From IMG/VR virus record IMGVR_UViG_3300027391_000002: DNA of 27,788 nucleotides; one strand, 5' to 3'. Source of the DNA: a virus. The position numbers and the translations under genes are program-made. Below are positions 1,586 through 27,030 of the stretch, piece after piece. The notes beneath the pieces are model-generated. The model was not told the DNA's origin, searched no databases, and saw only the letters and a list, made by a program, of their open reading frames with translations. Positions within the stretch are counted from its first letter, which is position 1; each line of letters begins with the position of its first letter.

Positions 1586-4500
1586 ATGGGTACCCATCTC
1601 ATACCATATTTACAGCGTAATATCTCTATTTACAGAAATGCTACGGACAAAAAAGGTGTGACACGGACTTTGTCTGCTGTCGTCAATCGTATAACATCTG
1701 GTGAACGTGATTTAGATGCGATGACAAAGTATTGCCATTCACTGTCACAAACTGATCTTGGCGCATATAGAGACTATAAAGTGTGTCTCCCTGCAGTTAC
1801 TTTTGGCGGAGCCTTCCATAAACGCAATGCTAATAACTTAGCACAACATTCGGGACTCGTTGTCCTTGATATTGACGGGATAGACCGATCAGAAGTCACG
1901 AATGTATTATCTGATATATCAGATATTCCATTTGTGCTGTTCGCTTTTATATCTCCCAGTGGTGCGGGGATAAAAGCCATATTGCCTGTAAATCCCATAC
2001 CAACCGACGCATCTGAACACAAAGCCGCATATCAATCTTGTAAAACAGCGATCGCTGAATATATTGATTGCGAAGTAGATCCATCCGGAAGTGATGTCTC
2101 GCGTCTCTGTTTCCTATCACATAATCCGTACCCTGTCATTAATGAACAGGCTTTACCTGTTGAGTGGGATCGCGAAAGTTATCTTGAGGGGTTAAATGAA
2201 CGGAGAAGCAGGCATAAAGACCGATGTCAGAATCAAGCCGGTAATACCAATATTGATCTCACAGCTCTTGAATATATATCACCCGATGTTGAATATGAAA
2301 CTTGGTTAAAAGTTGGATTAGCTTGTTACAACGAAGGATTGGACGTATCTGTGTGGGATGCATGGAGTCAACGAGGAAGTAAGTACCGACCCGGTGAATG
2401 TGAAGTAAAATGGGAAACATTTACAACCACAATTGCAGAGGAGGATAAGATTTATTGGGCATCTGTTATACATATCGCGAAAGAACATGGGTATATTCCG
2501 CCTAAGCGTACATACCATGCTAAACAGAGGTTGACGGTAAAGGAACAGGCAGGGAGTGCCTCAGACAATGACGAAATTCGAGCATTACAAAATGAACAAG
2601 TATTAGATTGGATAGATATTACGAACGACACAAAAGATAAAAGACTACTGGTATTTGAGGGTGCGGCTGGCACCGGAAAAAGCCATTTGTGCATTACGCA
2701 AATACCTGTTTATACGGACGTAAGTCCTACGAAAGAACTTGCTGACGAGAAATACACCAAAGCCTTGAATCATGGCAAACTCGCGGTTCGACATAAACCT
2801 CGCACTCACAACCAAGAGATTATGGCAGGACGCATGATCGAGGACATAAAGATAGGTTTGGATGAGAGCAGAGGTGAGGTGCCGTGTGCGTATCCAAATG
2901 AGTGCAATGCGGTTATTCAGGGTGGCAGGAGCCCGATGCTTGTATGTCTCGTTTGTCCATTCTTTGATATATGTAAAATTCAGGGATACCTCTCCCAATT
3001 TAATAAATTCCCGTCATACGACCTTGTATTCACTTGCCTTCCCGATATATTCGCGACGGATCCAATGTATGGCAGTGTGGTGTCACAGTTTATGCCCGAG
3101 AAAGCTGTTCTTGTATTGGATGAAGTTAATCCTGCCAGCATCTCTCCTGAACGTAGTGTCAATATTGAGACACTTGAAGAGTTGATTAAAGATTACGAAG
3201 GTTTCACTGCATCAACGTATCTCAACGAGATTGTTGCAAAGACAATCCGGATAAACGAACCCAAAGAACTTGAAGATATGTTTGGACGGTTAGAATCACA
3301 CCGGCAGTGGCGTGATGCGATCGCCTCTGTACATGATTTTTATGTTGATGAGTTGGAAAATATTGAAGACGAATTAGGTGGAGTCCCTGTCAAGGTAACA
3401 TTTGAAAGGATGTCTGATTCAATCTGTGCCCCTAATGGCACACAGATAAGTTCTGTGAAAGCGATAATTGAGTGGAAACATAAATCGGTAGTTTGTGCTG
3501 TTGTTGATAGTGATAATGTTGATTTGTTTATGACTTTTTCGGATATGAATTACATTTCATCACGCATTGTTCCACCAGGTGGATGGAAGCTGGGCAAAAC
3601 GTATAGCAGGCTGTTGCATGAAGGAACACTCTTTAGGTTGTTCGTTGATACCACTGATGTCGAGAGTATTGTTAATGTGCCCCGGTCATGCAAAACTCTT
3701 GTAAGCGATTTAGAATCGTTCCTGGAGGAATATCGTGATGTAGATATACCGGCTTGCTACCAAAAGGACGGCAATTGGACGTTCCATTTCTCTCCAACCT
3801 TGAATGCGCAACGTGGTATTTTCATATCTGCCAGTGGCGTATCCCATCAGATTCAAGAGATGTACCGTGATACAGATGTTATCACGGATGTTGTGGGTGG
3901 TGAGATGCCGGCATGGAAAGACGAATGTAAACTCTATCAAATTTCTACTGGAAGGTATACTCCAAAGCAGTCTCTGTTTTATGAGAATGAATTGAAGTCT
4001 CGTGGTCGCGACTTTGTAAAACTAATAATAGATGTGGCAAACAATGAACCCGATGAAGAGATACTTGTTGTTACGCCTAAAGCCTTTACGGCAGAGGGTA
4101 TATTAAGCGACCATATTGATATAACAGCACTGCATAAGTGCGAAAATATAACTGTTATCAACCATTTCCATGGAACAGGGGTTAACCTACATTCTGATAA
4201 GGACATCGTATTTGTATTGCATTATGAGCCACTCCCCACAGAAATAGAAAGAATTGCAACTCGTATTTATGCAGATGGCAACCTTGATTTCACAAGAGAG
4301 ATTGTCACATTGAATAAATATGCAGCAGAACTGGAAGAGGTGTATAGGTATACAGATGAACGGGTTCAACGGATCTATGACTACGAATGTGAGCGACGTA
4401 TCATGCAGTCGCTGATGCGATTGAGACCCAACCTGTATGAAAACAAAATAATTGTGTTGCTGACAAGCGAACCGATCGAAACACCAGTCACACCTGTGTT

Positions 4501-4792
4501 GTTTGATTTACAAATGTTACGGAAACATGTTGATGTTGGTGGGAACATGTCTGACTTTGATCCAAAAGTAAGCGATCAGAACACTGTTGATGTGAAACAG
4601 CTGTCAGAAGAACAAGGAATTAGCAAAAGACATGCGCGCAGGAAAACCGAGGAACCGCGCAAGACATTGAAAGCGGATCGGAATGCTGAAATCATCCGAA
4701 AACATAATGCGGGCATGTCCGGTAGGGAAATAGCAAAAGAAATGAAAATTGGTTTGTCTACAGTTCAAAGAATTATAAAAAATCAGGGGTGA
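1586..4792 (+). CDS. Fusion replication protein: VirE_N/BT4734-like primase-polymerase, PriCT-type domain, P-loop helicase-like ATPase and a C-terminal HTH.
   Basis: - Prim-Pol-like: KVCLPAVTFGGAF...HSGLVVLDIDG...FISPSGAGIKAILPV.
- PriCT-like: YETWLKVGLACYNEGLDVSVWDAWSQRGSKYRPGECEVKWETF.
- Walker A: GAAGTGKS (nt 2660-2683).
- Walker B-like: VLVLDEV.
- Cys cluster: CAYPNEC...CLVCPFFDIC.
- C-terminal HTH: GMSGREIAKEMKIGLSTVQRIIK. Confidence 0.9.
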   Translation: MGTHLIPYLQRNISIYRNATDKKGVTRTLSAVVNRITSGERDLDAMTKYCHSLSQTDLGAYRDYKVCLPAVTFGGAFHKRNANNLAQHSGLVVLDIDGIDRSEVTNVLSDISDIPFVLFAFISPSGAGIKAILPVNPIPTDASEHKAAYQSCKTAIAEYIDCEVDPSGSDVSRLCFLSHNPYPVINEQALPVEWDRESYLEGLNERRSRHKDRCQNQAGNTNIDLTALEYISPDVEYETWLKVGLACYNEGLDVSVWDAWSQRGSKYRPGECEVKWETFTTTIAEEDKIYWASVIHIAKEHGYIPPKRTYHAKQRLTVKEQAGSASDNDEIRALQNEQVLDWIDITNDTKDKRLLVFEGAAGTGKSHLCITQIPVYTDVSPTKELADEKYTKALNHGKLAVRHKPRTHNQEIMAGRMIEDIKIGLDESRGEVPCAYPNECNAVIQGGRSPMLVCLVCPFFDICKIQGYLSQFNKFPSYDLVFTCLPDIFATDPMYGSVVSQFMPEKAVLVLDEVNPASISPERSVNIETLEELIKDYEGFTASTYLNEIVAKTIRINEPKELEDMFGRLESHRQWRDAIASVHDFYVDELENIEDELGGVPVKVTFERMSDSICAPNGTQISSVKAIIEWKHKSVVCAVVDSDNVDLFMTFSDMNYISSRIVPPGGWKLGKTYSRLLHEGTLFRLFVDTTDVESIVNVPRSCKTLVSDLESFLEEYRDVDIPACYQKDGNWTFHFSPTLNAQRGIFISASGVSHQIQEMYRDTDVITDVVGGEMPAWKDECKLYQISTGRYTPKQSLFYENELKSRGRDFVKLIIDVANNEPDEEILVVTPKAFTAEGILSDHIDITALHKCENITVINHFHGTGVNLHSDKDIVFVLHYEPLPTEIERIATRIYADGNLDFTREIVTLNKYAAELEEVYRYTDERVQRIYDYECERRIMQSLMRLRPNLYENKIIVLLTSEPIETPVTPVLFDLQMLRKHVDVGGNMSDFDPKVSDQNTVDVKQLSEEQGISKRHARRKTEEPRKTLKADRNAEIIRKHNAGMSGREIAKEMKIGLSTVQRIIKNQG

Positions 4793-5739: not shown

Positions 5740-5833
5740 GAACTAAAGTTGAAATATGGCTTGTAACAGTAAAATACGCGGCCACCTGTTTCCTATAACC
5801 GTCTATGTTCATGTGAATTATTCGGGACACTTT

Positions 5834-6313
5834 ATGGCAAAACGAAGAACACTTGATGATGACCTCATTAGAGACATTGCAATTTACCGCGAACACGGAT
5901 TGAGTTTCCGTGCTATTGCGCGAAAACTTGGTATTCCTTGGTCAACATTTTGGTGTTGGTTAGAGGCAGGCAGAAATGCCACGCGCATCAATAATAATAA
6001 AAAGTTGTGGGATATGGTTGGAAGAGCCGATTTCAATCTGGTATATGATGCTGCCGCTACAGTTCGTCAAGCAGCAACACAGGAACGTATTACGAAAATA
6101 CAGGAGAAAGACACTTTTGATAGTGAAGGCAACCCAATCACAGAAACAACCATAACGAAAGAGGGACCAAGCCTACAAGCAGCCTTGAAAATACTGAAGT
6201 TGTTTGCTGAGCGGTGGAGAGGCTACCATGAATCTATTGACATGGAAGATAACCAAGCCTCTGTTGGATATGATCCGTTAGCAGACCTTGTGGATGACGA
6301 TAATAAAAAATAA
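5834..6313 (+). CDS. HTH protein resembling a small terminase subunit (TerS-like).
   Basis: N-terminal HTH GLSFRAIARKLGIPWSTFWCWLE. The C-terminal ALKILKLFAERWRGY resembles the conserved W-L-E-R-R tail of many TerS proteins. The track ORF begins at 5756, but the first 26 residues look non-native. Confidence 0.45.
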   Translation: MAKRRTLDDDLIRDIAIYREHGLSFRAIARKLGIPWSTFWCWLEAGRNATRINNNKKLWDMVGRADFNLVYDAAATVRQAATQERITKIQEKDTFDSEGNPITETTITKEGPSLQAALKILKLFAERWRGYHESIDMEDNQASVGYDPLADLVDDDNKK

Positions 6314-6504
6314 AAAAGCCTTTAAAATCTACCACTTTGAAGTGGTTAATATTTAAAAAACTAAAAAAATACTAAATACACAGTACGTAGGCAATAGTAT
6401 CAAAATAGTATCATCACAGTAGTCTGTGAAAAATTGGAAGTTCGCTTTTATGAGCCTTGTGAGAAATGTTAATGTGTGTTGTATAAAGGGTTCGGGGGCA
6501 TCAT

Positions 6505-6525
6505 AAATGCGAATAGTTCGCATTT
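6505..6525 (+). other. Hairpin module H1 (9-bp stem, tag loop) with a conserved 3' flank.
   Basis: aaatgcgaa-tag-ttcgcattt, followed by attacgattgtgaaaa. Confidence 0.6.
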
Positions 6526-6605
6526 ATTACGATTGTGAAAACGGTCACTAATTCGTGAATTGCCAAAACAGAAAACATTACTGTTACTGGTGTAGTCAAG
6601 AAGAT

Positions 6606-6626
6606 AAGTGACAATAGTTGTCATTT
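6606..6626 (+). other. Hairpin module H2 (tag loop). The stem sequence differs from H1 but the pairing is kept.
   Basis: aagtgacaa-tag-ttgtcattt has one G.U pair, valid only on the plus strand. It is followed by attatgatggtaaaaa. Confidence 0.6.
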
Positions 6627-6742
6627 ATTATGATGGTAAAAACAAGGTAAATATATGATGAATCACAGTGTATACATGGGAATGTGATTGATTGAGATCA
6701 CGAAAAATCACAGTATGTTCAATTTAGAAAATTGGTGTGTGC

Positions 6743-6950
6743 GGAAGTGGTTAATATATAAATACTAAAAAAATACTAAATACACAGTGTATGGTAAATA
6801 GTGCAGGAATAGTGCATGCACAGTAGTCTGTGAAAATTGAAAACATAGCATTAATTCGTGAATTGCTAAAACAGAAAAAGCTTACTGTTACTGGTGCAGC
6901 TAAAAAGATAAATGTTAGTAACTAACATTAATTATGATGGTAAAAGTAGG
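6743..6950 (+). repeat. Non-coding duplicated module, copy 2.
   Basis: Shared blocks: gaagtggttaatat..atactaaatacacagt, cacagtagtctgtgaaaa, taattcgtgaattgc.aaaacagaaaa, ttactgttactggtg and attatgatggtaaaa. Confidence 0.8.
6911..6929 (+). other. Hairpin module H3. The stem sequence differs again and the pairing is kept.
   Basis: aatgttagt-a-actaacatt, followed by aattatgatggtaaaag. Confidence 0.6.
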
Positions 6951-6959
6951 ATTCAAAGG

Positions 6960-6988
6960 TTGAAAAAAGTGGCGTGTTAGGGTATACT
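6960..6988 (+). promoter_or_regulatory. Sigma70-type promoter upstream of the RHH gene and structural block.
   Basis: TTGAAA (6960-6965), 17-bp spacer, TATACT (6983-6988). Confidence 0.5.
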
Positions 6989-7079
6989 AATAGTAGAATT
7001 ATAATATACTGATAGTAAGACTGTTAGTTTCTTATTTAAAGCGCAACGCTGGATAACTGAACAAGCGAATGTCTGACGA

Positions 7080-7334
7080 ATGAAAAATTTAAGTCTTGAC
7101 CAATACATAACCAAACCCAAACAAAAAACGGAAAAGCCCGCGACCTATTCCTTTATGAAAGATACAAACACCCGTTCTAACATGAAAGTGCTCAAAATCA
7201 CTTTACCGAAACAACTTATTGAACAACTGGACGCTATCAAAAGAGATACAGGGTTAACACGTTCTGAACATATCCGTCGTGGTTTGGGTATGTATGTTGA
7301 TTATGTGAATAAAAAACAAGCAACAAAACATTAG
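7080..7334 (+). CDS. Ribbon-helix-helix (CopG/Arc/MetJ-type) DNA-binding protein.
   Basis: KVLKITLPKQLIEQLDAIKRDTGLTRSEHIRRGLGMYV fits a beta-strand, helix, helix layout. The RBS at 7080 is weak, so the start is uncertain. Confidence 0.7.
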   Translation: MKNLSLDQYITKPKQKTEKPATYSFMKDTNTRSNMKVLKITLPKQLIEQLDAIKRDTGLTRSEHIRRGLGMYVDYVNKKQATKH

Positions 7335-7645
7335 TCCTCGCTGGTGAGGGGCGAACAAAAGAAACCTCACATGGAGTTCAGAAAATATATTTTGTCTCCT
7401 ACGTCCTCGTTAAGACGAAAAACTAACGCGTTTACCGAACGTAAATCGGTATCATAGATGTCAAATATGGTCGTCTTACAGGCTGACGCTAAATGCCTGT
7501 CTATCTTGAAACCTCGCGACGGAGGGACGCGTGTAAGGGAAGTAGTCTCTCAATATAATACATTTCGCTTGATTCTCTTGATACAGGTAAGCCCTGCTGA
7601 CAGGCTTAAATGTCAGCACTAATTAGAGATATATGGAGGCGCGTA

Positions 7646-8500
7646 ATGGCTGACAAATCATCCGCGGAAAAATATTCGAATGCACTTGAAGAGATTGACA
7701 AACTGAACAAAGTCGTAGAACTACGTGATGAAGAAATTAAGACACTTACAGAAGATAAACGTGTTCTACGAGACCTATTATCAGAAAAAACGAAGGATGT
7801 TGAAGATTATCAAGAACTCATGAAAGACTTTCAACTCGGCACTGGTGAAAGAGATGCTATCGAGGCACTGCAAGATGCACGCGAATACTTTCTCCAAAAG
7901 TTTGTTATACATCAGTTTGGAGCGGACACTGAAAAGGCACGTAATACCAAGACTTTTGAGGACAAACAGCAGGAGTTATCTGAGAGAACAGATATATTCG
8001 CAATTCTCAAAGATGCGGTCGACTTAGATCCTGAATCATATTGGAGAGAAACATGCACCGAACAAAAAGCACTCTCTGAGAAATTACAGACAGAACTGGA
8101 GAATCTTAAACAAACGACTATTTCACTCTCAGATCACCGTGCCGCAGTGGAAGATCTAAAGAACGAGAATTCACCAAACGATGATGAAATCAAAGAGTTA
8201 CTCGTCGATGCTACTATGGACATCCAGCGAGGGAAACAAGCGTTGACATTGGCACGAAACCAAGCTATTTGTGCGTACCTGTACTACTCCAGTATGAATG
8301 ACGAAGTGAAACAGCATCACATATCCACCAAAACCGAAGAAATAAAAAATAATGACGATCTGCGTTCATTACATAAGGAGGCAGACGCTTTTTGGGATTT
8401 GGCAGGGTTAGAACAATGTGGCACGAAATATAAGGAGTCTCTCGTGTTGGATAATGAAGATTTGCGCAGAAAATATCTAACATACGCAACCCTATCGTAA
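7646..8500 (+). CDS. Acidic coiled-coil protein (scaffold-like; function unknown).
   Basis: RBS ggagg lies 7 nt before the ATG at 7646, which is Met13 of the track ORF 7610-8500. The sequence is E/K/D/L-rich with heptad-like stretches. Confidence 0.7.
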   Translation: MADKSSAEKYSNALEEIDKLNKVVELRDEEIKTLTEDKRVLRDLLSEKTKDVEDYQELMKDFQLGTGERDAIEALQDAREYFLQKFVIHQFGADTEKARNTKTFEDKQQELSERTDIFAILKDAVDLDPESYWRETCTEQKALSEKLQTELENLKQTTISLSDHRAAVEDLKNENSPNDDEIKELLVDATMDIQRGKQALTLARNQAICAYLYYSSMNDEVKQHHISTKTEEIKNNDDLRSLHKEADAFWDLAGLEQCGTKYKESLVLDNEDLRRKYLTYATLS

Positions 8501-13721: not shown

Positions 13722-15617
<1,896 letters not shown>

Positions 15618-15631
15618 ACAAGGAGATAAAA

Positions 15632-16597
15632 ATGAAAGTATTTAGCTTATATAAAAACACGGGGTCATGGTCAATCTGGCAATATATTTACGACATGTTT
15701 TTTGACTATACGCCAGAAGGCATCACAGAAACATTTGACTACAAAGAAGCAGATGTAATGTTCACATTAGGCATGCCAGATCAGCCGGCAGTGGAGTTTC
15801 CTGACATCGATCCAGTAGCATTACGCAACCCACTTCTTTGGAATCAGATTAAAGGGTTCTCATCCGTCCAAAAAGCATTGCGTGAAACACCTATCATACA
15901 CTACATTGATAAATTCGGTGTTTCGCTTGGCGATAACGTGTATCGTCCTTTCATTCGCGACATTGATATACCCGTAGCGACTGCTCCATTACCACCACAT
16001 GCGAATAGTTATGTGATCCAGTGTGTTGACGGTCGCAATTTCTTTAAGGTCAACCGATTAGAACGCCGTGAGCGGAGTGTTATCTTAATACAAGATCAAC
16101 TGTTACCGATTTTAGATGTGCTGCCAACATTGTTAGAAGATGGCACAATATCACACCTAACAGTCACAAAACGCACTTTTGAAGAGTTTCCGCAGGATGA
16201 ACAGGATGCATTATTGCCAGCTTATGAGGCAGGCAAGATAACAGCTGGCAACCTCGCACATCCTAACGGTGTTCGTAATGCGCTAAATCAAAATCAGTTT
16301 GTCTTGACTACTGGTACGAATCAAGGCACCGAGTATATGGGAATAGAGGGCGGTTTCTGCGGGAGCCAACCGATTTATCCGGACACGCCTTATTACCGAG
16401 CACATTTTGGTGATGATATGGGTGTCGCATATTTTGATATTAGTAGTCCAGAAGAAAGTCTAAGATCTATTCTTACATCTACTCCGAATTGGGAAGAACA
16501 TCGTGAAGGCTTCATAAAGCATTTTGCTGCGAGTCACACAATGCCAGCATTTTGGGAACATGTCCGACAAATAATTGAGAAACCGAATAATGAATAA
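15632..16597 (+). CDS. Hypothetical protein, first gene of the cassette downstream of the fibre.
   Basis: RBS aaggag. No motif recognised by eye. Confidence 0.75.
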   Translation: MKVFSLYKNTGSWSIWQYIYDMFFDYTPEGITETFDYKEADVMFTLGMPDQPAVEFPDIDPVALRNPLLWNQIKGFSSVQKALRETPIIHYIDKFGVSLGDNVYRPFIRDIDIPVATAPLPPHANSYVIQCVDGRNFFKVNRLERRERSVILIQDQLLPILDVLPTLLEDGTISHLTVTKRTFEEFPQDEQDALLPAYEAGKITAGNLAHPNGVRNALNQNQFVLTTGTNQGTEYMGIEGGFCGSQPIYPDTPYYRAHFGDDMGVAYFDISSPEESLRSILTSTPNWEEHREGFIKHFAASHTMPAFWEHVRQIIEKPNNE

Positions 16598-17210
16598 TGT
16601 TTATGTTGAGATTGGCACAAACTACAATCCTGAATGGGGTGTTGAGAAGTTGACAGCAGGGCATACCGTCTACTTCATAGAACCTCAACCTGAAGCGTTT
16701 AGTCGTATGATTGACTATGTCCGGGCAAACTGCCACAGATACTTTCATAAAGCAAGATTTGTGAATGTCGCGGTTTATAGCAAGTCCTGTCTGGTTGACT
16801 TTGAAACTGACACACAATTCACAACCAACAGTGCAGCCGTCACGATTCAAGAGGCAATGAACACAACTAACAACATTCATGGACAGCGCACAATGCCATG
16901 CACGTATCTGGTGCATGCGTGTTCATTGTCAGATCTGCTATGTCATATCGCAAATACGACACAGAAACAGGTCTCTGGTGTTTTGATAGATACTGAGGGA
17001 TCTGAAATGCCGATACTTCAAGGATGGGGCTTTACGAACAAACCAACTGAGTTGATTATAGAAGTCCATCACCCATCAAACCAAACGAAAATCAGATATA
17101 TGTTATCAGAACACTACGATTATGTTAAAACCGAAGCCAATCCGCAGAATATTTATGTAGAATCTAAACACCTATATTTCAAACTAAAGGAGAATACTGA
17201 TGAACGATGA
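16575..17210 (+). CDS. FkbM-family SAM-dependent methyltransferase.
   Basis: N-terminal VYVEIGTNYN matches the xDxGAN-type motif I. VLIDTEGSEMPILQGW matches the FkbM IDxEGxExxxL motif. An alternative start at 16590 (MNNVYVE) overlaps the upstream stop. Confidence 0.75.
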   Translation: MRNRIMNNVYVEIGTNYNPEWGVEKLTAGHTVYFIEPQPEAFSRMIDYVRANCHRYFHKARFVNVAVYSKSCLVDFETDTQFTTNSAAVTIQEAMNTTNNIHGQRTMPCTYLVHACSLSDLLCHIANTTQKQVSGVLIDTEGSEMPILQGWGFTNKPTELIIEVHHPSNQTKIRYMLSEHYDYVKTEANPQNIYVESKHLYFKLKENTDER

Positions 17211-17508
17211 ACACAGATTTGCTTTTACCGACAATAATAACAGAGATACAGGGCATAGCATGGACACAAGTTATACAGTTGGCATAAACCACCACACTGT
17301 CCTTGATGATGAAAAACAGACCATACAAGACTTATCTATCCATCCGCCACGTATTGCTAAGACAGGTCTCGTAGGAGAATCAGGACACATACAAGACTTA
17401 TCTATCCATCCGCCACGTATTGCTAAGACAGGTCTCGTAGGAGAATCAGGACACATAGGCGACACAGGACACATGCAACTCAGTGGCACTACAGGAGCAA
17501 TTAGATGA
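17200..17508 (+). CDS. Small repeat protein with a collagen-like GESG/GDTG tail.
   Basis: RBS aaggag. Contains two identical copies of IQDLSIHPPRIAKTGLVGESGH, then IGDTGHMQLSGTTG. ATGA overlap with the next gene. Confidence 0.6.
   Translation: MNDEHRFAFTDNNNRDTGHSMDTSYTVGINHHTVLDDEKQTIQDLSIHPPRIAKTGLVGESGHIQDLSIHPPRIAKTGLVGESGHIGDTGHMQLSGTTGAIR
17324..17455 (+). repeat. Perfect 66-bp tandem duplication (two copies).
   Basis: 17324-17389 is identical to 17390-17455. Confidence 0.95.
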
Positions 17509-18842
17509 AAATAAGGTTACATTGGCTTGGATTAGCACACACTGTCACACATCCAGAATGGAATGCATGCGCTTTCACTATGAAGGTCTACAAAGGTTGT
17601 CCAATGATGACCAGATTAGGCAATACTGTCTATCATTATGGGAACGAAGAAAGTGAGGTTGAATGCACTGAACATGTATCTGTTATGAGCAAGGATGAGT
17701 GGACAAAGTTTTATGGTGATTACGACTGGCGTAAAGAGCAGTTCAAACACAGCAATCCAGAAGCATCACAACTCTTTACTAAGAATGCCATAGAGGCAAT
17801 CCGTGAACGTTACCAACCCGGTGATTTTCTGCTCTGCACGTGGGGCACAGGACATAAACCTATTGCAGACGGTTTATCTGATCTCAAGGACTTGCATGTT
17901 GTTGAACCCGGTATCGGATACCCTGATTGTTTCGCTCCGTATCGCGTGTTTGAATCATCTGCCAAAATGCATCTTGTATATGGACAGTGGGATGCGCGAC
18001 ACAAGATATATCAAGATTTTCAAGAGGCATTTAAAGAGATTCTCAGTAAAGAAAAGACATGGGAACTGATATTAGAATGCTTACCACAAACAGCAGCAGC
18101 AGTATCGCGTTTGTCACATTTGAATGAATCTATCACAGAATATTACACAACACCGAAGTGGACAGATGCTGTGATACCCAATTACTTCAATCCAGATGAA
18201 TTCACATATAAGAAAGAGAAAGATGACTACGCTTTGTTTATGGGACGTATAATCAATACAAAAGGCGTTGAAGATGCGATGCGTGTCTGTGATGTGATGG
18301 GTTGGAAGTTAAAGGTCGCGGGTCAAGGAAGCATTGAAGAGGAATTCGGTTGGGAACCTTACAAATGCGTTGAAGAGGTTGGATACGCCAATATTGAAAG
18401 GCGCAGAGAACTAATGGCTAATGCTCGATGTGTGTTTGTGCCCACTTACTACGTAGAACCTTTTGGCGGAGTGCACATGGAAGCACTTATGAGCGGAACA
18501 CCGGTGATCACAACGGATTGGGGAGTGTTTCGTGAGACTGTACCTCATGGCGAGGTAGGTTGGCGTTGTCGCAACTTCGAACAAATGGTATGGGCTGCTA
18601 AACATATTGATCAAATAGATCCAAAGAAATGTCGCGAATGGGCAATGAACTTCTCAATGGATCGCATCGGTTTAATGTATCAAGAGTATTTCGAGAGTCT
18701 ACTCCGTAACATCAAAGCAGATAATAAATGGCATCGGTATCCAGGGCGAAAAGATTTAGACTGGTTGAAACGCCCATACAAAAAGAAGCAGATCAAAGAG
18801 AAAACCGAACAAATCATTACGCACAATGCTAATCTATATTAG
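17505..18842 (+). CDS. GT-B fold glycosyltransferase (GT4-like).
   Basis: EPFGGVHMEALMSGTPVITTDWGVFRETV carries the E-x7-E motif typical of GT4 retaining glycosyltransferases. Confidence 0.8.
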   Translation: MKIRLHWLGLAHTVTHPEWNACAFTMKVYKGCPMMTRLGNTVYHYGNEESEVECTEHVSVMSKDEWTKFYGDYDWRKEQFKHSNPEASQLFTKNAIEAIRERYQPGDFLLCTWGTGHKPIADGLSDLKDLHVVEPGIGYPDCFAPYRVFESSAKMHLVYGQWDARHKIYQDFQEAFKEILSKEKTWELILECLPQTAAAVSRLSHLNESITEYYTTPKWTDAVIPNYFNPDEFTYKKEKDDYALFMGRIINTKGVEDAMRVCDVMGWKLKVAGQGSIEEEFGWEPYKCVEEVGYANIERRRELMANARCVFVPTYYVEPFGGVHMEALMSGTPVITTDWGVFRETVPHGEVGWRCRNFEQMVWAAKHIDQIDPKKCREWAMNFSMDRIGLMYQEYFESLLRNIKADNKWHRYPGRKDLDWLKRPYKKKQIKEKTEQIITHNANLY

Positions 18843-21282
18843 AAGCAATCAGAACGAGATCTAATATATTGACTTCACCATCGCTGTTTACATCCGCGGT
18901 GGTGTTTTCATTGCCAATAGCATTCGCAACGAGCACAAGGTCTTGAATGTTCACTTTGCCATCACTATTTAGATCATATTCAGATATTTCTGACACAACA
19001 AAACGGACAATCTCAGTAAAGTCATATCGTTGTGCGTTGCCTGCTTTGTCGTATAAATCCATTTGAGAAAGTCCCCACGTGCCCGGTGCACTTCCAACAG
19101 GGAGTACTATACGGTGATCATATTTTTTTGATGTGGTAGGATTATTTACAACATATATTGAACTATAATTGTCAGAATAATGGTAATGAGAATGAAGTAC
19201 CCCTTGTGGGTCTCTAAGACGCACACTGGCATATTCATAACCACTGATATCGTCCTTTACATAAAAAGCAATATCAACAACCGTTTCGCCATTAGGTGCT
19301 TTAGGATGCGTTGGTTCTGCTTTGATTGTTATTCTGTTTATATCTAAGACAGGGGGAGTTGTGTCAGGGTTTGTAGTTTCTATTCTGATCCAAGCAGGTT
19401 CCTCATCATTGCTGTCTGAAGTAAAATATGTGTGATTGCTATTATTCGCCACGTCTTCCATATAAATATAATTGACTTCATAAGTCCCATCTTGTTTGTA
19501 ATTAGGTATATGAATTGTCGAAAAAATTTGGTTGCTCCCGTGTCGATGTTTACCATACCCAAACAATGAATAAGTTTTATTATTTTCATCATTCAAACTA
19601 ATATTACCAACTTGTATACCAGATGCCTCAATAACCTCCCATGTTGCCGTGAGTATCTGATAAGTTTTACCTTCTGGTGTAACAGCATCCGACAACACTA
19701 ACCTCATAGAATTGGGAACATACTGCGGAGGTTCACAATCTGCCAGTGGATTATCAATATAGAGTTTCCAACCAAAGTCTGTTTGTCCCGCATAACGCTC
19801 ATTCCCTTGTTTATCCCATACTCGTATTTGGTCTGGTGCCCAATATCCCATTGCAGCATATTTTGATAACGTTGCTGATCCTCGTAGAATTGACGGATTA
19901 GTATTTACTGGTGCTAAACCTACATCAAAGAATGTCCCTTTGTCGCTAAATATGCGAATATATCCAGAACTCGCGAGATCCTGTTCACTTTCATTATGGA
20001 GTTCAATCTTAATTGTGATAGATTTGTCTTGATTAGGTAATCCCTCAACAGAAAGGCTTACTCGGACAATTCTGCCCGGATACACATAATCAGGATAGAG
20101 ATTATAGACTTGAAATGTTAGATCCTCACGTATCTGTGAAATATACCGAGTGCCATGCATAATACGATTCTGTATGAATTCATACTTTGCTGGCGATCGA
20201 GAACGAAGGAGATCCGGACGCACAATATAAAAACCAATACTCTCTGCCATGTCTTCATCTGGATTAGTGCCGTGCGCATACGCTGTAACGAATTCCGTTT
20301 GTTTTGTTGTTGACCATCCATCAGCGTCATCGGGGTTCGGATACCAACCGCCGAGTTCAATCCAGTCTTGTTTGAGTTGATCGTCAAAAAGATATTCCCA
20401 CAGGAAATGTGCTTTTTCATGCAATATAATGTTATAAATGGTATCGTAATTTGCACCTTTGAACGCAGACTCCATAAACTCAATATATCCAGCTCCAGTC
20501 CACGCAACCGCAGCCACACTGGGTGATATTGGATGTGGTAATCCATCAAGCCTACGCACCAGATATTTGAGTCCTGGTGTTTTAAGCATGCCTTGTGGAT
20601 ATTCTTCAAACATAGATATGATCGCGAGTATTTCCTCATTCTTAAATTCTGAAAACCGACCAGCATGTTCACCAGTAGTGTGCCGTGTCAATTCCGTATA
20701 ATCTGGCACATCGATACTCATATCATACCTTTGTTTTAGTATCTGTCTAACTGCATGCCGATCCGAACCTGAATCGGTAACATACCGGACAACAGCCCGA
20801 TGTAACCGTCGCGAGAAGAACCGACCACGCACACCTTCTATTTCAGCTAATAATGGATTGGCATAGACAAACGCATCCGCAGCGATCGTTACAAGATTGA
20901 TTTCTTCATAATGTTCTATTTCAATGTCGTTTTGAACGTGTAAGGATGTGATATGCCAGTGGGAAGTAGGAACTCGGGGTTCTAATTCGTAAGAGTTGTT
21001 AGTTGTCTGCGGAATGCTCTCAAATGTCTGTAGTAATGCCGTCGCTTGTTGATCGCTCCATTCAGCACCGAGATGCACGGAATACTTGTCTCGCAATTTT
21101 ATTGCTGCGCTATGATCCGACAACGTTACAACATCGTCAAGGATTATCACTTGCACAGGTTGAATGACGGTTGCACTTTCCTGTCCTTCAATCGTTTCAT
21201 TTATTTGCCATTCATACTCAAAGGCAATCCCATTGCCAACAAACAGAATAAACAACACACAGACGAAAATATACCTTCGCAT
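18829..21282 (-). CDS. Secreted HExxH zinc-metallopeptidase-like protein with a C-terminal type-I dockerin.
   Basis: - Signal-peptide-like N-terminus: MRRYIFVCVLFILFVGNGIAF.
- Metal-binding motif: ILHEKAHFLWE.
- Downstream gluzincin-like third ligand: NPDEDMAESIGFYI.
- Duplicated dockerin segments: DLNSDGKVNIQDLVLVANAI and DVNSDGEVNILDLVLIASNI. Confidence 0.85.
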   Translation of the reverse strand: MRRYIFVCVLFILFVGNGIAFEYEWQINETIEGQESATVIQPVQVIILDDVVTLSDHSAAIKLRDKYSVHLGAEWSDQQATALLQTFESIPQTTNNSYELEPRVPTSHWHITSLHVQNDIEIEHYEEINLVTIAADAFVYANPLLAEIEGVRGRFFSRRLHRAVVRYVTDSGSDRHAVRQILKQRYDMSIDVPDYTELTRHTTGEHAGRFSEFKNEEILAIISMFEEYPQGMLKTPGLKYLVRRLDGLPHPISPSVAAVAWTGAGYIEFMESAFKGANYDTIYNIILHEKAHFLWEYLFDDQLKQDWIELGGWYPNPDDADGWSTTKQTEFVTAYAHGTNPDEDMAESIGFYIVRPDLLRSRSPAKYEFIQNRIMHGTRYISQIREDLTFQVYNLYPDYVYPGRIVRVSLSVEGLPNQDKSITIKIELHNESEQDLASSGYIRIFSDKGTFFDVGLAPVNTNPSILRGSATLSKYAAMGYWAPDQIRVWDKQGNERYAGQTDFGWKLYIDNPLADCEPPQYVPNSMRLVLSDAVTPEGKTYQILTATWEVIEASGIQVGNISLNDENNKTYSLFGYGKHRHGSNQIFSTIHIPNYKQDGTYEVNYIYMEDVANNSNHTYFTSDSNDEEPAWIRIETTNPDTTPPVLDINRITIKAEPTHPKAPNGETVVDIAFYVKDDISGYEYASVRLRDPQGVLHSHYHYSDNYSSIYVVNNPTTSKKYDHRIVLPVGSAPGTWGLSQMDLYDKAGNAQRYDFTEIVRFVVSEISEYDLNSDGKVNIQDLVLVANAIGNENTTADVNSDGEVNILDLVLIASNID

Positions 21283-21301
21283 AATAATACCTCACAACAA
21301 A

Positions 21302-21634
21302 CTATTTTAGCAATTCGTCTTTTGAAGGTCTATTGTAATTTGGAGGAATTAAGTTGCTGCCTTTGTTCCAGTTTAATAGCCTCACATCTATATTCAATGC
21401 TTCTGCTTCCTCTTGGCATGCTGCAATCATTCTATCTGTATGAATGTGTTTTATATAGTTCCATACTTTTGCCCTGTCTTGTCCTGACTTGGCAATTTCC
21501 AAAGCCTCTTTATAGGTGTGCAATGCCTCTTGCAGACGACCTAATTCTTTAAACTTTATCCCTTTTTCAATTAGTTGATCAAAAGATTTATAATCATCAC
21601 CTTTAGCAAGGTGTTCTTTTATATCATCATTCAT
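21302..21634 (-). CDS. Small TPR-like helical protein, co-oriented upstream of the metallopeptidase.
   Basis: RBS aaaggag precedes Met9 of the track ORF. GRLQEALHTYKEALEIAKSGQDRAKVWNYI resembles a TPR helix pair. Confidence 0.65.
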   Translation of the reverse strand: MNDDIKEHLAKGDDYKSFDQLIEKGIKFKELGRLQEALHTYKEALEIAKSGQDRAKVWNYIKHIHTDRMIAACQEEAEALNIDVRLLNWNKGSNLIPPNYNRPSKDELLK

Positions 21635-21850
21635 AATATACTCCTTTTTAGTATACATGCTAATTATATAAACATCCTACCACACCATCCACACGCCTGT
21701 CAATCATGGAATGCCTTGAGGGTGTTTATAGTAGACAGAGTATCAGAACAGCACGTAAGGCATTCTGGGTGTCATTTTGCTTAACACTTGTAAAACTCTG
21801 CAATGCTACAAAGCGGTTTGGTGGATCTACCAATATTTTTAAGAAAGTTG

Positions 21851-21879: not shown

Positions 21880-22123
21880 TGGGATATAGACATAAGAGTT
21901 TCTGCTGACAAAGAAAGAACGCCACACGAGGGAGTATGACGTTCTACAAAATCTTTTAGTCTGTAGACATAACAGAGCAGAAACCACTACACTAAATAGA
22001 AGTGGAACTGTTTAAGTATTGTATCTTATAACGCGTGGATAATCAAGAATAATATTTAGAGAGTCCATTTTAGAAGTGGTGTAGTGTCTCAAATTAGAAT
22101 TATTACATAGAAGGAGTACTACA

Positions 22124-23071
22124 TTGCATCAAATTAACTTACAACCCCCAGCCCCTGTCTTAGAATCCACAAATTCAGTGATTCCCGAAATTCAAGTGTC
22201 AACCCATCAAGTCCCGTGTGGTCAACATAGTATCTTTGACCGCGACTATGACGTGACCGAATTTGAGAGAGCCGTGTATCTTATCATCAACTATCATTCG
22301 CATTGGGATGGTGGTTATTCCCATGCGTTATCGTATAGAATGATCGCTGACAAACTCGGTGTAAAGCACAGATCGCAAGTTGTGAGAGCCGTCAAATCTT
22401 TAATTGCTAAAGGGTGGTTAAGTATTGACCGGCAACGACTAACAGATGGTGCGAACATCTACAAGATTACACATCACAATTGTTTACCGGAACAAGTGCC
22501 ACTCGATGCCGACCAACGCCCACAGAAATGTGCTATACCGCACGGAGAAGGTTCTGCGGTTGTGTTAGTTGAGGAAGGCAAACTGAGTTGGCGAGCGATG
22601 GTTCAGTGGTTTGTTAGTAAGATATTTTCAGACTGGCGCACCGGTATTGTGCAGATGTCTATCAGGATGGCGAATGATCTAATGTCATTTTGTATGCAAA
22701 CAATATGCGACAACGCTAAAAAACTGACACAGATAGGGTTATTCAAAAGATTGTCTGCCAGAAACGCCATGTCTGAGTATCAAATCTATCCACAGCCGTA
22801 TCCTGAGAAACATGAACGGCAAGCCCGACAGTGGTATGAAAAGCCGTTGCCGTTGATAAATGGATACTATTACGCATACAATCGACGGTGGAGGTTCAGT
22901 AGAGAAAACCTAAGAGTTCAGATGGAAGATGTCTGTGGAAAATGGCGTTATGCGAGTATGTCCGAACTCTTAGAGATTAATCCACAGATTCATCGCGCTT
23001 TTACTGAGTATATTGACCGTCTCGCGCGAATGATGCAAGATTCAAATTTATACACCACCGCGCGGTGTTAG
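22124..23071 (+). CDS. Rep-like or regulator protein with two winged-helix-type regions.
   Basis: TTG start with aaggag 7 nt upstream. SYRMIADKLGVKHRSQVVRAVKSLIAKGWLSI is a classic wHTH. A second HTH-like stretch is ANDLMSFCMQTICDNAKKLTQIGLFKR. Confidence 0.7.
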   Translation: MHQINLQPPAPVLESTNSVIPEIQVSTHQVPCGQHSIFDRDYDVTEFERAVYLIINYHSHWDGGYSHALSYRMIADKLGVKHRSQVVRAVKSLIAKGWLSIDRQRLTDGANIYKITHHNCLPEQVPLDADQRPQKCAIPHGEGSAVVLVEEGKLSWRAMVQWFVSKIFSDWRTGIVQMSIRMANDLMSFCMQTICDNAKKLTQIGLFKRLSARNAMSEYQIYPQPYPEKHERQARQWYEKPLPLINGYYYAYNRRWRFSRENLRVQMEDVCGKWRYASMSELLEINPQIHRAFTEYIDRLARMMQDSNLYTTARC

Positions 23072-24435: not shown

Positions 24436-24537
24436 ATTCAACACCTTTCTTTTGACTGATATTGAATATGTTAACGACATACTCACACATTCGTTGCACT
24501 ATTCACTATAGTGCCAAGATTTACAAAGTGCTTGCCA

Positions 24538-24735
24538 TCACTTAAGTTTCTCATCTATTTTCTTCCCAAATTCTGTAGCAGTCATTTCCTCACTTTCTCC
24601 ATCTTCACTGAACAAGTCAGTCATAACAATATTGGGAACGCTGTTGTCATTTGGGTCTTCCGCTCTGGCAAGCATCTCTGCCATCTTTTCTATAGGGTTG
24701 CTCACTAAGTTAGTTTTGGGGTTAGACTTCTTCAT
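24538..24735 (-). CDS. Small acidic hypothetical protein, first gene of the leftward operon.
   Basis: RBS agaggt lies before Met17 of the track ORF. The upstream Met codons fall at or before the predicted promoter. Confidence 0.55.
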   Translation of the reverse strand: MKKSNPKTNLVSNPIEKMAEMLARAEDPNDNSVPNIVMTDLFSEDGESEEMTATEFGKKIDEKLK

Positions 24736-24766
24736 ATTTTTACCTCTTTTGACATGTGATTTGCTT

Positions 24767-24795
24767 AAGTATAGCATTAACACAAACGCCGTGCA
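24767..24795 (-). promoter_or_regulatory. Leftward sigma70-type promoter.
   Basis: Minus strand reads TTGCAC (24795-24790), 17-bp spacer, TATACT (24772-24767). Confidence 0.5.
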
Positions 24796-24801
24796 AATCC
24801 C

Positions 24802-24882
24802 AAAAAAGCGAAAAGCCTTCTGATTTTTTGGATGATCAGAAAGCTTTTCTACACAAAGTAAAAAGATTGTGTATAAATCTCT
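24802..24882 (-). ncRNA. Candidate sRNA of about 80 nt with its own promoter and intrinsic terminator.
   Basis: Minus-strand hairpin 1 is tacacaa/ttgtgta (24873-24850). Hairpin 2 is a 14-bp stem (24848-24811) that is perfect only on the minus strand, because the single non-Watson-Crick pair is U.G there and C.A on the plus strand. It is followed by ttttcgctttttt. Confidence 0.5.
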
Positions 24883-24888
24883 ACAGAT

Positions 24889-24917
24889 ATTCTACCAAAA
24901 ATATGAAAATATAGCAA
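24889..24917 (-). promoter_or_regulatory. Promoter of the candidate sRNA (extended -10).
   Basis: Minus strand reads TTGCTA (24917-24912), 17-bp spacer ending in TGg, TAGAAT (24894-24889). Confidence 0.55.
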
Positions 24918-24974
24918 GTATTGTAAAAAAGCGTTAAATTTCACTTAAAAGCAGTAAAAAATAGCGTTTTTTAT

Positions 24975-25003
24975 TTGACTTTTTATATAAAATGTGGTAT
25001 CAT
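24975..25003 (+). promoter_or_regulatory. Rightward sigma70-type promoter (extended -10) for the early small-gene operon.
   Basis: TTGACT (24975-24980), 17-bp spacer ending in TGg, TATCAT (24998-25003). Confidence 0.6.
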
Positions 25004-25072
25004 ATTATCAAAATAGTTTGCGAGTTAAAAAGAAAAAGGCGAGAGATGCAACTCTCACCTTCAAATGAAACT

Positions 25073-25130
25073 GACATGTTATCAGATTCTAATACTAATA
25101 ATAGGATACATTAATTTCTGATGACATGTC
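25073..25130 (+). promoter_or_regulatory. 14-bp leader hairpin just upstream of the first rightward RBS.
   Basis: gacatgttatcaga (25073-25086) pairs with tctgatgacatgtc (25117-25130), with one U.G pair valid only on the plus strand. RBS aggag is at 25140-25144. Confidence 0.5.
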
Positions 25131-25151
25131 AAATCAAATAGGAGATTTACA

Positions 25152-25394
25152 ATGTTAGACGATTTGACTATCCACTTAGGTTTCGGTCTTGAATGCCATG
25201 TGCATGCCGAACTGATAATCGGTCATTCTTGGGGTGTTCACCATTCTGCTGGTATTTGTGCGTCAGAGAGTATTCTCGCTTTACCGCAGATGCCTCGCAT
25301 GAATGGCATCAAGAGTCGTGCTGGTGTCGCGACGACAGAAATATCTTACGGAGCGGGACTTGATGCTGAGTTTGTGGGGGTGCCGTATGCGTAA
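25152..25394 (+). CDS. His/Gly-rich hypothetical small protein.
   Basis: aggag lies 7 nt upstream of the ATG. The stop overlaps the next start (ATGCGTAA). Confidence 0.5.
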   Translation: MLDDLTIHLGFGLECHVHAELIIGHSWGVHHSAGICASESILALPQMPRMNGIKSRAGVATTEISYGAGLDAEFVGVPYA

Positions 25395-26852: not shown

Positions 26853-27030
26853 ACAACAAAGGACAGGGGCGGGTGACCGTCCCTTATTTAATATGATAGT
26901 AGTTTTATGTGGTTTATTGTTATTTGTGATTGGTGTTGCAATAGGTATATACGAAGATCGCAAAGACAAACAACAACGACTGGCGCATGCAGAGACGCGT
27001 CGCTGGTCGTATAGAAAAAGGAGAAAGTAG
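26827..27030 (+). CDS. Small single-TM protein with a basic tail.
   Basis: MIVVLCGLLLFVIGVAIGIY followed by a K/R/Q-rich tail. An alternative start is at 26893. No clear RBS for either start. Confidence 0.35.
   Translation: MAIIFRNDKQQRTGAGDRPLFNMIVVLCGLLLFVIGVAIGIYEDRKDKQQRLAHAETRRWSYRKRRK

Follow-up and report, generated by a model that had tools for sequence, protein, structure and literature searches.

Ribbon-helix-helix (RHH) proteins recognize boxes of 4-8 base pairs in direct or inverted arrays with AT-rich flanks, such as the Arc TAGA box, the ParG tetramers, and the MetJ met-boxes (PMC12645479, PMC3413123). The sequence described here is a 766-nucleotide block (positions 6314-7079) of IMG/VR virus record IMGVR_UViG_3300027391_000002, a phage-like element in which the block separates a gene for a small-terminase-like (TerS-like) protein from a gene for an RHH protein. 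The whole stretch of 27,788 nucleotides that was analyzed is referred to as the window. Like the immI region of P22 (Arc/Mnt), pMV158 CopG, and the ParG/omega box arrays, the locus has a small RHH gene whose promoter is overlapped by short palindromic boxes, as well as many core boxes of 4-5 base pairs with AT-rich flanks, helical phasing, and both direct and inverted orientation. Unlike those systems, the array here extends over approximately 700 bp, is duplicated, and is interleaved with covarying hairpins. It is not a centromere of the ParG/omega type because no partner NTPase is present. The lambda tR’-type leader and other tandem terminators or attenuators share with this locus an A-rich 5’ base, a U-rich 3’ tail, and a transcribed orientation between early and late genes. 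The stems here differ from theirs in being G+C-poor and the tails in being partly U-rich, and no antiterminator gene or qut/nut-like site was identified.

Replication origins are the other described systems that resemble the block. In SaPI and PLE, the origins lie in non-coding DNA with many repeats (PMC9371898, PMC7145576). The SaPI ori, the P4 ori/crr, and the PLE origin resemble the block in being AT-rich and non-coding, in containing short repeats and two larger direct repeats, and in lying downstream of a replication module; those systems and this element also have a main replication protein with a C-terminal DNA-binding domain. They differ in that the block is not immediately 3’ of the replicase gene, its motifs have one orientation and irregular spacing, and the replicase is an AEP PrimPol and not of the Toprim or SaPI Pri-Rep type. 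At ssiA and ssiB of RSF1010, the primer is made 3’ of a stem-loop (PMC4234260). In pRN1 and Bordetella phage BIP-1, a stem-loop 3’ of a replicase gene with an AEP, PriCT_2, NTPase, and C-terminal helix-turn-helix (HTH) layout has been proposed as the origin, and pRN1 also has a CopG-like RHH protein (PMC4234260, PMC3869888). The RSF1010 oriV, pRN1, and BIP-1 share with this locus a hairpin with a conserved 3’ flank next to repeat arrays, and a replicase layout that appears to be the same. Unlike those, the hairpins here have 11 base pairs, lie on one strand, and are 1.5 kb from the replicase, whereas the pRN1 stem-loop is about 100 nucleotides in length; the flank here does not preserve the GTG motif found in pRN1.

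The block is a real and tidily organized feature, and most likely an ordinary one: a control region that acts in cis where two modules of a mobile element meet. Its sequence has no relative in any collection searched. A more specific reading, held tentatively, is that of an RHH-controlled operator, promoter, and terminator region between the early (replication/TerS) operon and the tail operon.

Duplicated modules and hairpin units

The initial annotation had described the block as lacking a credible open reading frame (ORF). Fifteen ORFs of at least 20 amino acids overlap positions 6314-7079. All are 56 amino acids or shorter, none has a reliable Pfam match, and none keeps its start and frame across both copies of the module described below.

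The same annotation had reported a duplicated module with an insertion in the first copy, and this duplication is confirmed. The module is approximately 205 nucleotides in length, and copy 1 contains an extra 109 nucleotides (6433-6541). With these removed, the two copies are 76% identical over 211 columns, while shuffled controls have a mean of 51% and a maximum of 57%. The paired segments are 6339-6368/6744-6773 (83%), 6356-6451/6760-6855 (73%), 6546-6575/6849-6878 (93%), and 6572-6641/6876-6945 (79%). No paralogue of the block was found elsewhere in the genome. The block is also the AT-richest part of the genome, with a GC content of 0.31 in 6501-7000, and contains two A-tract segments (6300-6390 and 6720-6810) with GC values of 0.18-0.25, or 75-82% A+T. 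It was built by duplication of the 205-nucleotide module and further copying of a 40-nucleotide hairpin unit. The features of the block are as follows, left to right.

6331-6346, plus strand: terminator-like hairpin ACCACTTTGAAGTGGT with an A/T-rich tail, ∆G of −8.6 kcal/mol and z of −3.4; it closes the upstream operon, and its 3’ arm is the left edge of the first module A
6339-6440, plus strand: module A copy 1, with the box GAAGTGGTTAATAT, CACAGT at 6379, and the palindrome CACAG-TAGT-CTGTG at 6415-6428
6427-6466, plus strand: decayed fourth hairpin unit, 60% identical to the reference unit, with the 3’ arm and flank kept and the 5’ arm lost
6433-6541, plus strand: segment of 109 nucleotides found in copy 1 only, which holds hairpin 1, with direct repeats TGTGAAAA at 6425-6432 and 6534-6541
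6503-6542, plus strand: hairpin unit 1, with stem 6503-6513/6517-6527, loop TAG, 3’ flank TTACGATTGTGAAAAC, and −12 kcal/mol as RNA
6546-6648, plus strand: module B copy 1, with the inverted repeat AATTCGTGAATT, the conserved helix CCAAAACAG/CTGTTACTGG, and hairpin unit 2 (6604-6628, flank to 6643)
6649-6743, plus strand: spacer between the copies, with CACAGT at 6664 and 6709 and the inverted repeat ATGAATCACA/TGTGATTGAT (6658-6692)
6744-6845, plus strand: module A copy 2, with 11-nucleotide repeats at 6760-6780, CACAGT at 6783, and the palindrome at 6819-6832
6849-6950, plus strand: module B copy 2, with hairpin unit 3 (6908-6932, flank to 6947), overlapped by a 31-amino-acid ORF (6830-6925)

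Three hairpins with shared flanks had been noted, and they are located at 6503-6527, 6604-6628, and 6908-6932. Their sequences align without gaps.

Hairpin 1: ATAAATG-CGAA-TAG-TTCG-CATTTAT
Hairpin 2: ATAAGTG-ACAA-TAG-TTGT-CATTTAT
Hairpin 3: ATAAATG-TTAG-TAA-CTAA-CATTAAT

The window contains three copies of the 3’ flank TTAYGATKGTRAAA, each of which follows one of these hairpins; the chance expectation is 0.26 copies. The conserved part of the hairpin unit consists of the hairpin base and this 3’ flank and does not include the upstream sequence. The inner pairs of hairpins 1, 2, and 3 are C-G/A-T/T-A at the first position, G-C/C-G/T-A at the second, A-T in all at the third, and A-T/A-T/G-C at the fourth. 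Three of the 11 stem pairs are changed on both sides (five cells) and are still paired. Over the three copies, 97% of the cells are paired, compared to 33-55% with slid partners. Variable columns make up 6 of 8 in the inner stem and 8 of 32 in the flanks (Fisher p = 0.014). The inner stems are as the initial annotation had described them, different in sequence and still complementary. Its statement of a single non-canonical pair is correct for the G.U pair of hairpin 2 and overlooks an A.A mismatch in the outer stem of hairpin 3.

When folded as RNA, hairpins 1, 2, and 3 have values of −12, −11, and −6.2 kcal/mol on the plus strand and −12, −5.9, and −3.7 kcal/mol on the minus strand; when they are folded as DNA, the strands differ little. 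Folding of the whole block gives z values of −2.4 (plus) and −3.8 (minus), which do not discriminate between the strands. All structural inference is based on three paralogous copies in one clonal genome, since no relative of the block was found and the fetched loci are identical in the block. The kept complementarity lends partial support to stems that act as single-stranded nucleic acid and not as duplex sites recognized by their sequence. Repair templated by the hairpin is another process that could maintain complementary arms, and it would not require selection. Selection on single-stranded structure, as proposed in the initial annotation, agrees with module B and the hairpin units, which look like single-strand structure. 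The annotation had missed that a large part of the block looks like duplex protein-binding DNA.

The identical genome was found in 16-17 contigs from several metagenomes, and exact-protein look-ups returned identical genomes only. One source metagenome is a marine-sponge data set (bioRxiv 10.1101/2024.01.09.574914); the sources include SRR6214543, JGI 3300002147 and 3300027327/8, and ERZ27241788/96/98. The block is 100% identical in all 14 fetched loci that contain it. The initial annotation had suggested collecting homologous elements by BLAST; no relative of the block was found in any collection searched, and a blastn search of the block against phages returned no match. The tblastn searches gave no match for TerS among phages, and for the replicase among phages and plasmids they gave weak matches to the N-terminal primase region (residues 6-357). 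Viral and genome collections were also searched for related loci, with TerS (as a single sequence and as an alignment), a 296-amino-acid protein, and the replicase as queries, and gave none. In protein searches, the RHH protein and the 296-amino-acid protein had no homologue and TerS had one. Scans with DNA patterns for the hairpin unit and the palindrome produced matches that were rejected as chance, one within a coding gene (L010) and others without flanking similarity (L011, L012).

Box arrays and the putative RHH promoter

Module A contains several short repeats, with two pairs of direct repeats phased at 11 nucleotides. Copy 1 has the phased 11-nucleotide repeats AAAAAACTAAA and AAAATACTAAA (6355-6376). 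Each copy has its own local tandem repeat, as had been noted: AATAGTATCA at 6393-6402 and 6404-6413 in copy 1, and AATAGTGCA at 6797-6805 and 6808-6816 in copy 2. The palindrome reported for each copy is present, at the position given earlier in copy 1 and at 6819-6832, one nucleotide to the left of the earlier 6820-6833, in copy 2. The two A modules diverge blockwise: identical segments, among them ACTAAAAAAATACTAAATACACAGT and CACAGTAGTCTGTGAAAA, adjoin segments that are fully changed, and both units of each tandem repeat have changed jointly between the copies (ATCA versus GCA). This pattern indicates that the divergence is not uniform decay. The helical phasing of the 11-nucleotide direct repeats argues for duplex protein-binding sites, and with its A-tracts and palindrome, module A looks like duplex protein-binding DNA.

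The hexamer CACAGT occurs six times in the block, the number reported earlier, and all six are on the plus strand. Four more are found in the other 26.9 kb and none on the minus strand, with approximately 17 expected in the whole window. The hexamer seems to be avoided outside the block and is absent in the reverse orientation, with all 10 copies of the window on the plus strand. Within the block, the spacings are 36, 249, 45, 74, and 36 nucleotides, and the boxes are co-oriented except inside the two palindromes. The tetramer TAGT occurs 13 times in the block versus 1.6 expected from the rest of the genome (P about 1e-8), on one strand only, and ATAGT occurs eight times versus 0.5 expected, with no copy of its reverse, ACTAT. 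All 13 TAGT sites have one orientation, with spacings of 11, 14, 22, and 12 nucleotides within clusters. The tetramer forms the apex of each palindrome, lies within or adjacent to the loop in each of the three hairpins, is present in every one of the four tandem-repeat units, and is part of two palindromic boxes near the RHH gene. The sequence AGTAGTCT, which is the core of the module A palindromes, occurs four times in the window versus 0.57 expected, three of them at 6418, 6822, and 7541. The features at the right end of the block and beyond are listed below.

6960-6988, plus strand: best sigma-70-like promoter of the block, TTGAAA-17-TATACT, matching at 10 of 12 positions and facing the RHH gene
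6983-7020: two copies of TATACTRATAGTARRA, 22 nucleotides apart and the only two exact matches in the window, candidate RHH operators
7080-7334, plus strand: RHH (CopG/Arc-type) gene, with RHH_1 at E = 2.8e-8 and a PHROG transcriptional repressor at E = 6e-8
7541-7548, plus strand: third plus-strand AGTAGTCT, approximately 100 nucleotides upstream of the first gene of the tail module

The RHH gene annotated at 7080-7334 is supported by its RHH_1 match. Its start is less certain; because no Shine-Dalgarno sequence precedes 7080 and the RHH domain begins at residue 38, the start may be 7183, which would give a protein of 50 instead of 84 amino acids. A minus-strand promoter match faces the plus-strand promoter at 7027-6998. 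The palindromic cores of the two candidate operators, TACTAATAGTA (6985-6995) and TACTGATAGTA (7007-7017), overlap the −10 regions of the plus-strand (6960-6988) and minus-strand (7027-6998) matches. Sigma-70-like matches such as 6960-6988 are by themselves not rarer than chance. Short symmetric boxes that overlap the promoter of the RHH gene are what is expected of an RHH autoregulatory operator, and the arrangement is the standard layout of autoregulation, with the operators being candidates. The box ATAGTAG resembles a half-site of the Arc TAGA type.

The phased repeats, and the TAGT boxes linked to the RHH promoter, point first to transcriptional control. In the proposed mechanism, RHH binding, transcription, and termination are inferred from the repeats, the motif enrichment, the promoter overlap, and the maintained pairing. 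The RHH repressor would bind the TAGT boxes cooperatively and would repress its own promoter together with weak, activator-dependent promoters inside the A modules. In these putative promoters, the TAGTCT at the palindrome center would serve as the −10 element, and the AATAGT repeats would straddle the −35 element. The upstream A modules would act as further operator arrays. In plus-strand RNA, the hairpins may function as weak intrinsic terminators or attenuators. They have an A/U-rich base, a UUAUUAYGAU tail, and G.U pairs that are possible on the plus strand only. Placed in series, they could insulate expression of the tail genes from early read-through, and their differing inner stems may keep neighboring hairpins from mispairing or recombining. 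Consistent with this mechanism, the block lies between an operon that ends in a terminator-like hairpin and the RHH gene with the tape-measure and fiber genes. The A/T-rich tails of the hairpins resemble those of the terminator-like sites at 6331-6346 and 26865-26884, and AGTAGTCT is common to both A palindromes and the region upstream of the first tail gene.

Several observations weigh against an RHH-controlled junction. The A modules have no conserved good sigma-70 promoter. As terminators, the hairpins are weak, with three G-C pairs in hairpin 1 and two each in hairpins 2 and 3, and the tails after the G+C core read ATTTATTAYG or ATTAATTATG. A terminator scan flagged 6331-6346 and none of the three hairpins. 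Conservation of the 3’ flank extends over approximately 19 nucleotides, which is beyond the need of a terminator and fits a recognition site better. The highest AT content of the genome, located at the block, fits an origin equally well, and the motif counts are inflated by the duplication itself.

Alternative roles of the block

Two upstream genes enter into the alternatives.

1586-4792, plus strand: replicase, with a PrimPol-type primase domain, PriCT_2, Walker A (359), Walker B (508), and a C-terminal HTH
5834-6313, plus strand: TerS-like HTH gene, with HTH_38/HTH_23 at E about 1e-5 and a weak PHROG terS match

No helicase family match to the replicase was found, and the Walker A and B motifs are present all the same. 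The TerS-like ORF opens at 5756, and its likely start is 5834 because similarity to its homologue begins there. That sole homologue (P0002 of locus L009) is 68% identical and is located directly upstream of a gene for the large terminase, TerL (TIGR01547, E = 1.7e-8, residues 31-440), within positions 1404-3256 of L009.

The main alternative, although somewhat unlikely, is that the block is a replication origin or cis-acting replication region. The C-terminal HTH of the replicase, or an O-like initiator, would bind the CACAGT/TCACAG boxes, the A-tract segments would melt, and the plus-strand hairpins would extrude, with their conserved 3’ flanks acting as single-strand initiation signals for priming or loading. 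The position of the block in the AT-richest part of the genome agrees with this, as do the two clusters of the CACAGT hexamer and the two long direct repeats, which resemble the crr region of P4. The iteron-containing, AT-rich non-coding origins of SaPI and PLE point the same way, as does the apparent domain layout of the replicase; the likeness to the stem-loop origins proposed for pRN1 and BIP-1 is a looser one. The conserved hairpin base with a 3’ single-stranded flank corresponds to the description of the RSF1010 ssiA and ssiB sites; those sites face each other on opposite strands inside oriV, whereas all hairpins here, including the decayed fourth, lie on one strand. Adjacency to the initiator gene, as in iteron-type origins, is also lacking, with the block 1.5 kb and three genes downstream of the replicase, which ends at 4792. 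No stem-loop of approximately 100 nucleotides follows the replicase gene directly, as in pRN1 and BIP-1, and the hairpins measure 25 nucleotides against the 100 of pRN1. The CACAGT spacing is not iteron-like, the boxes do not form opposed sets as in SaPIs, the block contains no DnaA boxes, and the cumulative GC skew merely follows gene orientation. Four of the 10 near-DnaA (one-mismatch) matches of the window cluster at 22034-22986, in and beside the O-like replication initiator gene, which makes that region a rival origin site; it has TCCACAG three times and an inverted repeat at 22910-22973. A narrower form of the origin reading is unlikely: the hairpin units would be undescribed single-strand initiation or loading signals for an AEP PrimPol-NTPase-HTH replicase. 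The bacterial element would encode a tail and TerS, have no head genes, and depend on a helper phage, and the duplicated block would be its origin and possibly its packaging site as well. Packaging by itself is very unlikely as the role of the block. As a pac site, its repeated boxes would be bound by the element’s own small terminase, which would recruit the large terminase of a helper phage for the head-less element. The block is directly 3’ of a TerS gene whose homologue precedes TerL in L009, and both TerS proteins have kept an acidic motif, YDPLADLV, at the C-terminus. No TerL, portal, or capsid gene is recognizable in the window, and TerS-binding regions (SPP1, P1, lambda cosB) typically contain repeats and A-tracts. 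However, the break points of the contigs vary between assemblies, which fits a circle or circular permutation and not a mapped site; duplex TerS sites leave the covariation of the hairpins unexplained; and no similar repeats are present near the L009 terS.

That the block is largely non-functional duplication debris, in which hairpin-templated repair or gene conversion keeps the arms complementary with no selection involved, is quite unlikely. Such debris would stem from a tandem duplication, perhaps of a decayed promoter and the 5’ end of an XRE-type gene. Positions 1-22 of HTH_3 are matched by the 31-amino-acid ORF at 6830-6925 (E = 0.017), the short direct repeats TGTGAAAA flank the extra segment, one hairpin unit is visibly decayed, and the block sits exactly where the head module would follow terS in L009. 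On the other side, the HTH_3 match is sub-threshold, splicing out the hairpin gives no extension, and the ORF is frameshifted in copy 1 relative to copy 2. The divergence is blockwise and not uniform, the motifs are enriched with a strong bias to one strand and in connection with the RHH promoter, and a compact genome of 27.7 kb would not usually carry 766 nucleotides of junk. The initial annotation had put forward a family of small RNAs as a candidate, and trans-acting small RNAs have a slim chance. Each B module would encode an RNA of approximately 100 nucleotides with a helix and a terminal hairpin. A consensus fold of the two copies keeps all pairs, with three changes compensated and five one-sided changes that give G.U on the plus strand only, and the conserved unpaired stretches TAATTCGTGAATTGC and TTACTGTTACTGG are possible seed regions; with two sequences as its basis, however, such a fold is biased towards compatibility. 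The Rfam comparison called for in that annotation yielded no match at the gathering threshold in the whole window. Over 6200-7200 with E up to 10, it yielded six chance-level matches of 12-17 bits against thresholds of 39-114, so that no Rfam family was matched even at this setting. A tRNA/tmRNA search was negative, the modules contain no conserved sigma-70 promoter, and the best duplexes with the 5’ regions of the element’s own genes are no better than those of shuffled RNAs. Least probable of all are conserved small proteins or hairpins that serve as recombination sites. The proteins would be encoded either on the plus strand, by mini-ORFs whose starts lie in the hairpins, or on the minus strand of the A modules, as hydrophobic peptides. 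ATG, GTG, and ATG do occur at the same position in the three hairpin units, the 3’ flank reads IYYDC/GE/KN, and a hydrophobic 31-amino-acid ORF lies on the minus strand at 6751-6846. A conserved small ORF that explains the conservation had been named among the findings that would refute the initial annotation, and the mini-ORFs were found to lack conserved starts and Shine-Dalgarno sequences, though the genes of this genome have strong AAGGAG sites. The conserved flank shows approximately one synonymous and four or five non-synonymous changes across the three copies, and copy 1 lacks the start of the minus-strand ORF. Recombination at the hairpins, also suggested in the initial annotation, appears unlikely as no integrase, recombinase, or Y1 transposase was recognized in Pfam, PHROG, or NCBIfam.

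Further assignments were tried and rejected. A relic of an XRE-type HTH_3 gene reaches 15.6 bits against a 23-bit threshold and covers profile positions 1-22 only. An integron attC site, or another hairpin recombination site, was set aside: no recombinase is recognizable, and the stems are short and almost perfect, in contrast to a bipartite R''/L''-L'/R' hairpin with extrahelical bases. Read on the minus strand (6751-6846 and 6353-6523), the A modules contain hydrophobic mini-ORFs, for example MFSIFTDYCACTIPALFTIHCVFSIFLVFIY, reminiscent of type I toxins. A type I toxin-antitoxin locus was rejected; the minus-strand ORF at 6751-6846 has no Shine-Dalgarno sequence and its start is missing in copy 1. 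A search for iterons in the surroundings of the O-like initiator gene showed no array, just a loose cluster of near-DnaA boxes. No TerL remnant was found in the block.

The element and its other regions

The window has a 127-nucleotide terminal direct repeat, which indicates a circular genome of 27,661 bp. Strong AAGGAG-type ribosome-binding sites precede the genes, and consensus sigma-70 promoters are present at 33-61 and 1490-1518, which points to a Shine-Dalgarno-using bacterium with standard promoters as the host. On the plus strand, the order is an HNH nuclease, the 1068-amino-acid replicase, two small genes, the TerS-like HTH gene, the 766-nucleotide block, and the RHH gene, followed by 311 non-coding nucleotides and a module with tape-measure and collagen-like fiber genes. 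The 311-nucleotide stretch (7335-7645) makes the RHH gene an island in approximately 1.3 kb of mostly non-coding DNA. It contains a G+C-rich hairpin without a U-tract at 7337-7350, and the gene that follows probably starts at 7646 (Shine-Dalgarno GGAGA) and not at 7610.

No large terminase, portal, or capsid gene was recognizable in the window with Pfam, PHROG, or NCBIfam. With its own TerS, tape measure, and fiber, the element may be a helper-dependent (satellite-like) or a defective tail-encoding element. The collagen-like fiber gene (13722-15617) has nested tandem repeats with periods of 9 to 270 nucleotides at 14106-15472. The region 16575-21658 carries cargo that is odd for a phage-like element, including an FkbM-type methyltransferase and a group 1 glycosyltransferase and, on the minus strand, an 817-amino-acid protein with a dockerin domain and a TPR protein. 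A perfect 66-nucleotide tandem repeat (2.1 copies, 17322-17457) lies within the ORF at 17200-17508, and its copy number is the sole difference among the fetched loci, with one unit fewer in ERZ27241798. A second AT-rich non-coding region at 24487-25302 has divergent genes on either side, promoter matches on both strands, and a 22-nucleotide inverted repeat (25072-25093/25110-25131), and is probably the main genetic switch of the element. A near-copy of the RHH-box motif is found at 25091-25106.

If this is a tail-encoding element with its own small terminase and no large terminase or head genes, it would represent an unusual kind of helper dependence. If the hairpins prime a PrimPol-type replicase, the finding would matter more, since bacterial origins for such replicases are poorly defined. 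If the block is the RHH-controlled region favored here, it would be one more repressor-controlled junction region in a mobile element, and would mainly be useful as an illustration of how an RHH box array is laid out, in which the paralogous hairpins are at hand for tests of termination or attenuation.

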